20,350 nucleotides of DNA from the NCBI RefSeq assembly GCF_003334335.1, contig NZ_QOWQ01000052.1. One strand, written 5' to 3'. Position numbers and translations under genes: made by a program. Each line of letters starts with the position of its first letter. Within the stretch, counting starts at the first letter, position 1. This DNA comes from Escherichia coli (lineage in GTDB: Bacteria > Pseudomonadota > Gammaproteobacteria > Enterobacterales > Enterobacteriaceae). Below are positions 2,948 to 9,361 of the stretch, in pieces. Under the pieces are notes generated by a model. That model made no database searches and had not been told where the DNA came from. It was given only the letters and a program-made list of their open reading frames with translations.

Positions 2948-3733
2948 ATGGGATATTTAAATAACGTCACCGGTTACCGCGAAGATTTACTGGCTAACCG
3001 TGCGATTGTTAAACACGGTAATTTCGCACTGTTAACCCCGGATGGTCTGGTAAAAAATATTATTCCGGGCTTTGAAAATTGTGACGCGACAATCCTCTCC
3101 ACGCCAAAGCTGGGTGCCTCTTTTGTTGATTATCTGGTCACACTGCATCAAAACGGTGGCAACCAACAGGGCTTCGGTGGCGAAGGCATTGAAACGTTCC
3201 TGTATGTGATCTCTGGAAATATCACTGCCAAAGCCGAAGGCAAAACATTTGCCTTAAGCGAAGGTGGCTATCTTTATTGCCCGCCAGGCTCCTTAATGAC
3301 GTTTGTTAACGCCCAGGCCGAAGACAGCCAAATCTTTTTATATAAGCGCCGCTATGTTCCGGTAGAAGGCTATGCACCGTGGCTGGTTTCTGGCAATGCC
3401 AGCGAACTGGAACGCATTCATTATGAAGGCATGGACGATGTTATTCTGCTGGATTTTCTGCCCAAAGAGTTAGGTTTTGATATGAACATGCATATCCTCT
3501 CTTTTGCACCAGGTGCCAGCCACGGTTATATCGAAACACACGTTCAGGAACACGGTGCCTATATTCTTTCCGGTCAGGGGGTTTATAACCTCGACAATAA
3601 CTGGATCCCGGTGAAAAAAGGCGATTACATCTTTATGGGCGCTTATTCTTTACAGGCTGGTTATGGTGTAGGGCGTGGTGAAGCGTTCAGCTATATTTAC
3701 TCGAAAGATTGTAACCGCGACGTAGAGATTTAA
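2948..3733 (+). CDS. allE: (S)-ureidoglycine aminohydrolase (bicupin), 261 aa
   Basis: ATG at 2948 with AAGGAG at 2935-2940; 261 aa; formerly ylbA; last gene of the allDCE cluster. Confidence 0.88.
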   Translation: MGYLNNVTGYREDLLANRAIVKHGNFALLTPDGLVKNIIPGFENCDATILSTPKLGASFVDYLVTLHQNGGNQQGFGGEGIETFLYVISGNITAKAEGKTFALSEGGYLYCPPGSLMTFVNAQAEDSQIFLYKRRYVPVEGYAPWLVSGNASELERIHYEGMDDVILLDFLPKELGFDMNMHILSFAPGASHGYIETHVQEHGAYILSGQGVYNLDNNWIPVKKGDYIFMGAYSLQAGYGVGRGEAFSYIYSKDCNRDVEI

Positions 3734-3775
3734 GTCATACCACTCGCCTGATTATTTTTAGCTATGTTGGATTTT

Positions 3776-3802
3776 GCCACGGTTTATACCGTGGCTTTTT
3801 TT
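3776..3802 (+). terminator. rho-independent terminator after allE
   Basis: Stem GCCACGG / CCGTGGC (3776-3782 and 3789-3795) with loop TTTATA, followed by T7 (3796-3802), 43 bp after the allE stop. Confidence 0.8.
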
Positions 3803-3810
3803 GTAACATT

Positions 3811-3839
3811 GCCTGATGCGCTTCGCTTATCAGGCCTAC
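3811..3839. repeat. REP-like palindromic unit
   Basis: GCCTGATGCG...CTTATCAGGCCTAC resembles the E. coli REP consensus (GCCKGATGCG...CTTATCMGGCCTAC); it lies in a convergent intergenic spacer. Confidence 0.6.
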
Positions 3840-3887
3840 ATGATCTCTGCAATATATAGAATTTGCGCGATTTTCAGGAAGGATATG

Positions 3888-3915
3888 GTACTCATGCCGC
3901 ATCCGGCATGAGTAC
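3888..3915. repeat. 28-nt perfect palindrome (REP-like, BIME partner)
   Basis: GTACTCATGCCG-CATC-CGGCATGAGTAC: 12-bp arms with a 4-nt centre; the core GCCGGATGCGGC on the opposite strand resembles the start of a REP unit. Confidence 0.55.
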
Positions 3916-3960
3916 TGCACTCTTATGCGATATAAATCGCATCCGCTTTAAAGGTAAGGG

Positions 3961-5106
3961 TTAGTTTTTAATTCCCTGACCTATTTTAATGGCGCAGGCA
4001 ATATTTCGCGCGCTGTTGAAGAGATTGGTTTCACCGCTGGCGAGCACTTCGGCTAAAGGTGCCAGACGAGGCAAAATGCTGAATACCGCGTCAATGCCGT
4101 ACTGGTGCACCACTTCCACGCCATCACCCAATACGCCAGCAATCCCAATCACCGGTACATTAAACTGCTTCGCCACCGACGCCACACCCAGCGGCGCTTT
4201 ACCGCCTGCCGTTTGCGAGTCGATGCGCCCTTCCCCGGTAATCACCAGTGCTGCGCCCTGCACTGCCTGCGCAAGATTGACCGCATTCAACACAATTTCA
4301 ATGCCCGGTTTAATATCCGCATTGAGAAATACCGCCGCCGCAATACCCATACCGCCCGCAGCGCCGCCGCCCGCCATCTGGCAGACATTAATTTCAGTTT
4401 GCTGTTGTAAAACACGGGCGTAATTTTGCAGCCCCTGTTCAAGTTCTTCGACCATCTCCGGCGTTGCCCCTTTTTGCGGGCCAAACACCGCCGCCGCGCC
4501 GCGTGCCCCTACCAGCGGGTTATCAACGTCACATGCTACTTCAATATGGCAATTCGCCAGACGCGGATCGCATTCATCCATCTCAATGCTTGCCACGCGC
4601 GCTAAATTACCACCGTTTGCCGCCAGCGCCTGACCGTCGGCATCAAGGAAACGCACACCGAGCGCCTGCGCCATGCCCATACCGCCGTCGACCGTCGCAC
4701 TGCCGCCAATGCCGAGAATAATATGGCGAATGTCGTTATCCAGCGCATGACGAATTAACTCCCCCGTACCAAAACTGGAGGCCAGCAACGGATTACGCTT
4801 TTCAGGCGCGACCAGCATCAGGCCACTTGCTGCCGCCATCTCAATCACCGCCGTTTTCCCGTCGCCGGTAAGGCCATAAAAAGCATTCACTTTTTCGCCC
4901 ATCGGCCCGCAGACTTCAAGCGTCACGATGTTGCCGCCCGTCGCGGCGACCATCGCATCCACCGTCCCTTCGCCGCCATCCGCTATCGGCAAACAGATAT
5001 AGTTCGCATCGGGAAAGAGGGTCGAAAACCCGGCTTTAATTGCCTGACAACATTTTTCTGCACTTAAGCTCTCTTTAAAAGAGTCTGGCGCAATGACAAT
5101 CTTCAT
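3961..5106 (-). CDS. glxK: glycerate 2-kinase, 381 aa
   Basis: The ORF track starts at TTG 5112; in-frame ATG at 5104-5106 ([12 protein letters not shown]...) with AAGGA upstream gives 381 aa. Glycerate kinase family; last gene of the minus-strand gcl operon. Confidence 0.88.
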
Positions 5107-7906: not shown

Positions 7907-9361
7907 TTAACCTATGGTTTTTTGCTCTCCTGTTTTTTCTGCTGTTGTACGTTTCTTTAATAAGGCGTAGGCCGCAAAGGCGACGATGACGCCGACAAAC
8001 CATGAAACACGCGATAACGGTTCCATAAAGTGAATAAACTTACCGCCAAGAGATAAAATAACGGCCACCAGAGTTACTGAAAACGCAGTGAGGTTAAAAC
8101 CGTTATCGTAATATTTATAATCGCCAGGTGCGGTATACAGTTCATCAAGATTAATTTGTCCGCGCATCACCACAAAATAATGCGCCATCATGACACCAAT
8201 TACCGGACCAAGCATTCCGCCGATAATATCGAGGAAAAGATAAATGCTGTCCTGATTTTCCATTAATTTCCACGGGCAGATCAGCAAGCTGATAATACTG
8301 GCAATCAGTACGCCGTTTTTATAGGTCAGTTTTGTCGGTGCAATGGCGGCAATCTGATAACCGGCTGGAATAATATTACCGGTCGCGTTAGTGGAGATAG
8401 TTGTCATCAGAATAACCAGTACCGCAAAGAACGAGGCGAACAGGCTGTCCCAACGCTGAACAATATCCAGCACGTTCCAGGTATCAGCGCCGTAGTGAAT
8501 ACTGGCTCCGGCAATAATACATACCCCGGCGACCGCAAACAGAATATAGGCCACAACTAAACCCAGCGTTTGCCCCAGCGCCTGCTCACGAAACGAGTGG
8601 GCGTTTTGCGTAAAGTCGGATGCGCTCACCGCCGGTGCCGCCCAGACCGCAACTACCGCGTTAATCACCACCAGGAACAGGAAGCCACCGTTTTCTGCTT
8701 TCTGAATACCGCTCGGAATGTAGTCAAAGATTGGACCGATCCCGACCAGTGAAATCGCCCAAATCGCCATACCGCCGAAAACGATATAGATGCACGGGTT
8801 AAGAATGGCAGTGAATTTATTTAAAACTTTGCCACCGCCAAAACCTATACCAACGTTGACCAGCCAGAAGATTAAGAAAGTAATTAAGCCCGGTAGAGAA
8901 AGGCCTAACAGAGTGAAATCACCACCGAGAGTTAAAAATCCCGGCCAGATTTTGCCAATCAGAATCAAGCAGGCCAGTGACCCCGCGTAACATTGCAAAC
9001 CAAACCACATGATGGCGGCAATTCCGCCCCTTAATAATCCGGGAAACAGTGCACCACGTACACCGTAAGAAGCACGCAGGATCATGGCAAAAGGCACACC
9101 GTATTTACTGCCCGCAGCACCGTTTAATACCATTACCGCGGCAATGAAAAAGGCGCTGAGGATAATTGCCAGCATAATACTAAAGGTAGACAAGCCGAGA
9201 ATAAAAAAGCCGCCGACCATCACATAATTGGGAACGTTATGAACCGAACCCATCCATAAGGTAAAATAGTTAAATGTTTTCCAGGTCCGCTGGCTTTGCG
9301 TTTTCGGCAATAGATCTTCGCTATAGCCGCGTTGCTGGAATAGTTTTCTCTGATGTTCCAT
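7907..9361 (-). CDS. ybbW: allantoin permease (NCS1 family), 484 aa
   Basis: ATG at 9359-9361; 484-aa multi-helix membrane protein; lies between glxR and allB as expected for the allantoin transporter. Confidence 0.88.
   Translation of the reverse strand: MEHQRKLFQQRGYSEDLLPKTQSQRTWKTFNYFTLWMGSVHNVPNYVMVGGFFILGLSTFSIMLAIILSAFFIAAVMVLNGAAGSKYGVPFAMILRASYGVRGALFPGLLRGGIAAIMWFGLQCYAGSLACLILIGKIWPGFLTLGGDFTLLGLSLPGLITFLIFWLVNVGIGFGGGKVLNKFTAILNPCIYIVFGGMAIWAISLVGIGPIFDYIPSGIQKAENGGFLFLVVINAVVAVWAAPAVSASDFTQNAHSFREQALGQTLGLVVAYILFAVAGVCIIAGASIHYGADTWNVLDIVQRWDSLFASFFAVLVILMTTISTNATGNIIPAGYQIAAIAPTKLTYKNGVLIASIISLLICPWKLMENQDSIYLFLDIIGGMLGPVIGVMMAHYFVVMRGQINLDELYTAPGDYKYYDNGFNLTAFSVTLVAVILSLGGKFIHFMEPLSRVSWFVGVIVAFAAYALLKKRTTAEKTGEQKTIG

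Follow-up and report, generated by a model that had tools for sequence, protein, structure and literature searches.

Results

Layout of the allE/glxK spacer

The window analysed here is a 20,350-nt stretch of Escherichia coli DNA, and the region under study is the spacer between two convergent genes, allE on the plus strand (stop codon at 3731-3733) and glxK on the minus strand (stop codon at 3961-3963), as placed by open reading frames and annotation. Positions 3700-3990 are identical to E. coli K-12 MG1655 (K-12 543005-543294; the K-12 position is 546994 minus the window position), and the spacer measures 227 bp in K-12. The K-12 spacer can be read as the allE intrinsic terminator, one partly decayed BIME-1 and the stem-loop of glxK's own terminator. 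Known parts (the allE terminator, the BIME-1 and what is left of a second terminator) account for the whole spacer, and the element in it is of an ordinary, already known kind in the best-studied bacterial genome.

Two minor candidates in this region were set aside. A 52-aa ORF at 3762-3920 on the minus strand spans the repeats and was taken as spurious, and a minus-strand promoter-like site at 3780-3751 was ignored (one found, 1.4 expected). Within the allE coding region, positions 3237-3255 also form a perfect hairpin (8-bp stem, 3-nt loop); about two such hairpins are expected per window by chance. The spacer was unmatched altogether in 80 of 5426 E. coli genomes. Truncated allE occurs in some strains, for example as a pseudogene in 23CRST031, and Ec1120 gave a match to glxK only.

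The allE terminator and the STnc480 element

An intrinsic terminator of allE had been proposed at 3776-3802 (plus strand) in the initial annotation, and it is indeed found there. The hairpin GCCACGGT-TTAT-ACCGTGGC (3776-3795) begins 43 nt past the allE stop codon, has a G+C-rich stem of 8 bp (6 G-C pairs) with a 4-nt loop, and is followed by T7 at 3796-3802. The 70-nt allE 3' UTR (3734-3803) folds with an energy of -18.8 kcal/mol (z -3.5). The 3' arm of the hairpin and the T-run are conserved over five genera, Klebsiella, Raoultella, Citrobacter and Superficieibacter among them, and the loop varies. Both the 3' arm and the T-run lie outside the pattern used for the search; the 24-mer served as that pattern, and finding it unchanged in those loci is therefore circular. 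Bidirectional use of this terminator by glxK was ruled out on sequence, as the minus strand reads A7, hairpin and AAAAUCC.

The allE 3' UTR ending in this terminator (3734-3802, plus strand) was assigned to the STnc480 element. Rfam RF02068 (STnc480) matched at 3740-3806 on the minus strand over the full model (positions 1-72) with 87.6 bits (gathering score 72). In the original report, STnc480 was placed between glxK and ylbA with the orientation '-> <- <-', which is the ylbA/allE strand (Sittka 2008 Table S3, PMC2515195), and the Northern probe used for it, JVO-3257 (GCCACGGTTCTCACCG; Sittka 2008, PMC2515195), has the sense of the Rfam model and therefore detects allE-sense RNA. The strand of the Rfam model is thus opposite to what both the orientation column and the probe indicate; it is likely that the model lies on the strand opposite to the RNA of Sittka 2008, and the family appears to have been built as a reverse complement. 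The reversal probably came about because category IV entries in Table S3 give coordinates from low to high irrespective of strand (Sittka 2008, PMC2515195). Locus and sequence are the same here, and, judged from them, the STnc480 RNA is in effect the allE 3' UTR plus terminator; the E. coli version is known by sequence, and the Hfq reads are from Salmonella.

Two further loci with this element were observed. In K. oxytoca (about 400-560 of the locus), an inserted REP-like pair separates the allE stop codon from the conserved STnc480 element, which still adjoins the glxK stop codon. A 12-kb contig labelled as a Sporobacter termitidis MAG also carries glxK and the STnc480 element, and since its sequence is Klebsiella/Raoultella-like, it is probably a mis-binned enterobacterial contig.

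A single, partly decayed BIME-1 element

Downstream of the allE terminator, a 119-nt block (3806-3924), which occurs in the long allele only (see below), is by its sequence a single BIME-1 (RIB/RIP-type) element, as judged from alignments, genome counts and a family alignment. For the family alignment, we used six copies at five other loci (downstream of glnS, uvrB/yvcK, downstream of yhaC, rpn/yjiR in two strains, and downstream of fruA), and the K-12 yaaX/yaaA copy, which is a BIME-1 by alignment and presumably the one annotated as RIP, was aligned as well. The column-by-column alignment gave a common order of y REP, linker ATGATCTCTGCAATATATTGAATTTGCGCG, inverted z1 REP GTAGGCMGGATAAGGCGTTCACGCCGCATCCGGC and right-flank motif ATGAACAAAGCGCACTT, and the block matched all of these copies, which confirms the BIME arrangement that had been suggested for the spacer. 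BIME-1 is described as y and z1 REPs in inverse orientation with a long L linker, often carrying an IHF site, in single copy (Ton-Hoang et al., PMC3333891), and RIBs sit at the 3' ends of transcription units (PMC3333891). The copy here has the same order, orientation and sequence of y REP, L linker, z1 3' arm and right flank, and is likewise a single element at the 3' ends of convergent units, polymorphic among strains. It differs in that the canonical z1 hairpin has been lost, with a shifted perfect 12-bp hairpin in its place, and in an extra mismatch in the IHF core.

Each part of the block can be assigned. The unit at 3811-3839 (plus strand), previously described as REP-like, is a y-type REP, GCCTGATGCGCTTCGCTTATCAGGCCTAC, with a fold energy of -12.9 kcal/mol; it is nearly identical to the y REP of other BIME-1 copies and one loop base away from that of the six reference copies. 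It is followed by the L linker (3840-3873), whose identity to other BIME-1 copies is 85-90% and which also aligns to Rfam ES036; this conserved linker between REP and palindrome had gone unmentioned in the initial annotation. At 3874-3907 lies a degenerate inverted z1 REP (minus strand) that keeps the orientation and an intact 3' arm (GCCGCATCCGGC), whereas its 5' arm has decayed (TCAGGAAGGATATGGTA compared with the consensus GTAGGCMGGATAAGGCG) and its fold is shifted. The naRNA4/REP model scored 16.9 bits on this unit, compared with 29-38 bits for canonical z1 copies. The block ends with the BIME-1 right-flank motif at 3908-3924, ATGAGTACTGCACTCTT where the consensus is ATGAACAAAGCGCACTT, and on its left side it has no flank motif, the allE T-run lying directly against the y REP. 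With its decayed 5' arm, shifted fold and low REP-model score, the element is therefore a decayed BIME-1 derivative rather than an intact member.

The abundance of the left part agrees with a repeat family. Positions 3826-3887 (62 nt) matched a median of 18 places per genome, and positions 3807-3887 (81 nt, REP and linker) matched at least 40 places per genome, in both cases in all 5426 complete E. coli genomes. Rfam ES036 (RF02751, CssrF) matched 3832-3874 with 38.1 bits (gathering score 37.6) and aligns to the L linker and the REP tail. The linkers of other BIME-1 copies also match ES036, with 27-33 bits (in E-value mode; these fall below the threshold in gathering mode), so the hit reflects membership of the repeat and no specific gene. 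The naRNA4 family (RF02564, CssrE, REP325) aligned weakly to the REPs here, far below its gathering score. That K-12 has no REP feature at the locus is uninformative, because the NC_000913.3 copy carries no repeat features even at the yaaX/yaaA BIME-1.

Binding of gyrase or IHF had been attributed to BIME elements without distinction of type. The gyrase-type BIME-2, with y and z2 REPs, short linkers and tandem copies, was ruled out, as the element here is a single unit with a long L linker; the IHF half of the attribution agrees with the BIME-1 type, with a core that carries an additional mismatch. The IHF core at 3850-3862 (minus strand) is ATTCTAtataTTG, with two mismatches to WATCAANNNNTTR, whereas the reference copies (6/6) have ATTCAAnnnnTTG, with one mismatch. 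The second mismatch falls in the CAA core (ATTCTA here, ATTCAA in all six others), and the putative IHF core of this copy, as read from its sequence, is weakened.

Two common alleles and the glxK terminator

No T-run terminator had been seen for glxK, which is true of this allele. A fourth hairpin was missed, the stem-loop at 3925-3942 (minus strand; ATGCGAT-ATAA-ATCGCAT, -9.0 kcal/mol, z -4.3), which begins 18 nt downstream of the glxK stop codon and which, by comparison with the short allele, is the stem-loop of glxK's own intrinsic terminator without its U-tract; about 54% of genomes have a glxK hairpin with T7. On the glxK strand of the window, AAGAGUGCA comes after this hairpin (3942-3925) and CCAUAUCC after the palindrome. 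The glxK 3' UTR here contains four successive hairpins of -9.0, -22.2, -12.9 and -15.3 kcal/mol, and a U-tract follows none of them.

The spacer occurs mainly in two forms. The long allele was found in 2367-2368 of the 5426 genomes (~44%), including K-12, BL21 and O157:H7, and the BIME-less junction in 2951-2957 genomes (~54%); together they make up ~98%. In BIME-less alleles, the 20 nt GTAAATTCAGGTAAAAAAAG stand in place of the 119 nt at 3806-3924. The glxK hairpin of the short allele reads GATGCGAT-TTAT-ATCGCATC plus T7 on the minus strand, and its RNA, GATGCGAT-UUAU-AUCGCAUC followed by U7, is a canonical terminator; in a second short haplotype, the hairpin is CGGAUGC...GCAUCCG and the tract after it U6. 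The missing U-tract of K-12 glxK is thus explained by the repeat block, which sits where the T-run would be. Independently, a deletion of 13 nt (CAGGTAAAAAAAG) has removed the glxK T-run from the BIME-less allele of E. coli BS-04.

The remnant hairpin differs among long alleles. All six sampled variants other than the K-12 form, which include BL21/C41, as well as Escherichia sp. E1V33 carry three substitutions in this hairpin, each disrupting one of its seven pairs, and its energy in the sampled variants changes from -9.0 to -3.9 kcal/mol. The palindrome is still paired in the same genomes. By identity bands, ~1800 genomes have the K-12 form and ~570 have variant forms, for which stem decay is extrapolated from the six sampled. 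Such decay is as expected if a U-less hairpin no longer matters, which the sequences of these variants would fit.

The 28-nt palindrome

The palindrome at 3888-3915 (minus strand) is perfect, as had been noted, its two arms of 12 nt enclosing a loop of 4 nt. By chance, judged from 200 dinucleotide-preserving shuffles, a 20-kb window should hold 0.015 perfect hairpins of 12 bp. The fold energy of the palindrome is -22.2 kcal/mol (z -6.5). A reading of it as a second REP unit was rejected: the 46 nt around it are single-copy, present in 2368 of the 5426 genomes, and by fold, alignment and copy number the palindrome, consisting of the z1 3' arm and the right flank, is derived, as far as its sequence tells, from the inverted z1 REP with a shifted hairpin centre. 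Canonical copies fold at a z1 hairpin with a TTCA loop, whereas the copy in the window folds 11 nt further on, around a CATC loop.

The shifted hairpin is prefigured in canonical copies. In the rpn/yjiR copy, the same 28 positions form a quasi-palindrome with 9 Watson-Crick and 2 G·U pairs of 12 (minus-strand RNA), compared with 12 of 12 in the window. Between the window copy and the consensus there are seven differences, and every one makes or keeps a pair; they comprise two double compensatory changes and three pair-creating ones. A later substitution was also observed: E. coli E94 and AR62.2 carry 3913 T>C alone, which gives a G·U in glxK-sense RNA and an A·C in allE-sense RNA, and 23CRST031 and Escherichia sp. 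E1V33 carry 3913 T>C together with 3890 A>G, by which a G-C pair is restored. That the intermediate can pair as G·U in glxK-sense RNA only points to this RNA as the form that matters, on a compensatory path that comprises one pair in a few sampled strains.

The right border of the block shows some further variation. Long alleles are identical over 3734-3886, but of the 76 positions that follow (3887-3962), 8 distinguish the C41/E1V33 type from the K-12 type. The glxK-side haplotypes GGTAAGGGT and GGCAAGAGT are each common to a different short allele, and this sharing of sequence suggests a recombination boundary adjoining the palindrome. In addition, TTCAGG (3873-3878) is common to the decayed z1 arm and to the 20-mer of the short allele, perhaps by chance or as the sign of a chimeric junction.

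Direction of the event

The outgroup scan, made with an exact pattern and one genome per species, returned ten loci. Escherichia sp. E1V33 has the long allele, and E. whittamii has the beginning of the long allele and is apparently long. E. coli E69 has the short-type T-run and a different small insert. In K. oxytoca, K. grimontii, K. spallanzanii, Raoultella and Citrobacter, the glxK stop codon is ~9 nt from the allE hairpin, with no separate glxK terminator. Since GGTAAATTCAGGTAAAAAA is common to two distinct short haplotypes and to E69, we infer that the BIME-1 replaced this T-run sequence, and insertion rather than loss is the tentative direction of the event.

Discussion

Compared with the initial annotation, whose outline stands, the main value of this analysis is a correction with several parts. 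First, the repeat is of the BIME-1 type, as opposed to an unspecified pair of REPs or a gyrase-type element. Second, the palindrome is a shifted z1 derivative. Third, glxK has a terminator stem that has lost its T-run. Apart from the locus itself, a likely strand error in Rfam RF02068 can be flagged.

For the 3' end of glxK, we consider a combined account to be the probable one, with moderate confidence: a BIME-1 replaced the glxK U-tract, and the shifted palindrome hairpin now sets or protects the glxK 3' end. The repeat block, where present, stands in place of 20 nt including the run that supplies the U-tract of the glxK terminator. In K-12-type strains, transcription would then stop inefficiently at the U-less hairpin and read from glxK into the repeat, and the steady-state 3' end may be the point at which the very stable 12-bp hairpin halts 3'-to-5' exonucleases; the y REP could be a second barrier. 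Within the repeat, the latent alternative hairpin of the canonical BIME-1 may have been perfected into the palindrome while the canonical z1 stem decayed. Such a role has precedents. U-less stem-loops and REPs protect the 3' ends of Rho-terminated mRNAs (Dar and Sorek 2018, PMC6061677; Peters et al. cited there), and in the model proposed for them, termination occurs downstream and exonucleases then shorten the transcript until a stable stem-loop without a U-tract stops them (Dar and Sorek 2018, PMC6061677). Here too, stable U-less hairpins lie downstream of a gene that has no functional intrinsic terminator, and the -22 kcal/mol of the palindrome is in the protective range; glxK is a candidate for such protection. 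Among the candidate hairpins on this strand, comparison of the folds makes the palindrome the likeliest, and a probable, protective 3' hairpin of the glxK mRNA. The earlier suggestion that the palindromes may serve as the 3' end structure of glxK is plausible, with some support from the G·U intermediate in glxK-sense RNA.

Several points count against the combined account. The allE and glxK genes are poorly expressed under standard conditions, and perfect palindromes can arise without selection, by template-switch mutation. The glxK genes of Klebsiella, Raoultella and Citrobacter adjoin the allE hairpin and have no U-tract terminator themselves, so glxK may do without a special 3' structure. 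None of glxK, allE, ylbA and K-12 5430xx-5432xx is listed among the 3' ends tabulated by Adams 2021 and TERMITe.

The strongest competitor, which we regard as possible and clearly less probable than the combined account, is a neutral or selfish BIME-1 in decay that has no role in glxK or allE expression, with a palindrome made by template switching and 3' ends lying wherever Rho or downstream hairpins act. The block is dispensable, as ~54% of genomes do without it, and degradation has affected the IHF core as well as the canonical z1 stem. BIMEs are moreover named as a major source of intergenic polymorphism (Bachellier 1997, as cited in PMC3333891), and the quasi-palindrome of canonical copies is of a kind that template switching could perfect. 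However, all seven changes in the palindrome are consistent with pairing, the later compensated substitution passed through an intermediate that pairs in glxK-sense RNA only, and the adjoining remnant hairpin has decayed in genomes whose palindrome has kept its pairing, all of which counts against a neutral repeat. A stronger version of that account, in which a decaying REP was exapted so that, after the loss of the U-tract, selection perfected the 12-bp RNA stem that now defines and protects the glxK 3' end, is put forward tentatively, and we would not expect it to hold in full.

A small regulatory RNA function, with an ES036-like RNA from the L linker (minus strand) and STnc480 as an Hfq-dependent sRNA from the allE 3' UTR, appears improbable. 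Neither Rfam match falls below its gathering score, the Rfam consensus of STnc480 is highly conserved in the stretch upstream of the hairpin, and the plus strand is shaped like the 3' end of an Hfq-binding sRNA, with a U-rich stretch, a hairpin and a U-tail. In Salmonella, STnc480 gave 74 reads in Hfq co-immunoprecipitation compared with 4 in the control, an 18.5-fold enrichment (Sittka 2008, PMC2515195). However, such enrichment is expected of any stable terminator fragment, and the Northern entry for STnc480 is 'nd' (Sittka 2008 Table S3, PMC2515195). ES036 is just 0.5 bit over its threshold, and given the scores of other BIME-1 linkers the family is simply the repeat. The conserved 15-mer of STnc480 has no complementary target in the 20-kb window besides the element itself, and a literature search on STnc480, ES036/CssrF and glxK with Hfq gave nothing useful.

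The least probable alternative, a DNA-level RIB/RIP site at which IHF bends the DNA or insulates supercoiling between the convergent units, would fit the well-conserved linker and the frequent IHF sites in BIME-1 linkers of RIBs at transcription-unit 3' ends (PMC3333891), but it has against it the second mismatch, in the CAA core, that sets this copy apart from all six reference copies, while the gyrase-binding version belongs to BIME-2. A search for IHF occupancy at the locus in PMC8407004 found nothing.

As for the combined account, its two alleles can be useful beyond this locus. The canonical glxK terminator (~54%) and the repeat-derived U-less hairpin (~44%) form a natural allele pair, with which the effects of REP-type hairpins on mRNA 3' ends could be measured. 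If the exapted stem were real, these two common alleles (44% and 54%) would differ in glxK transcript ends, in transcript stability and in antisense read-through into allE. The spacer of E69 (roughly 8040-8150 of its locus) carries an insert containing CCCCTCGCCCCTTTGGGGAGAGGGGG, which we take to be BoxC-like, flanked by two copies of the glxK hairpin region, and judging from this insert the allE/glxK spacer seems to be a hotspot for small repeats.
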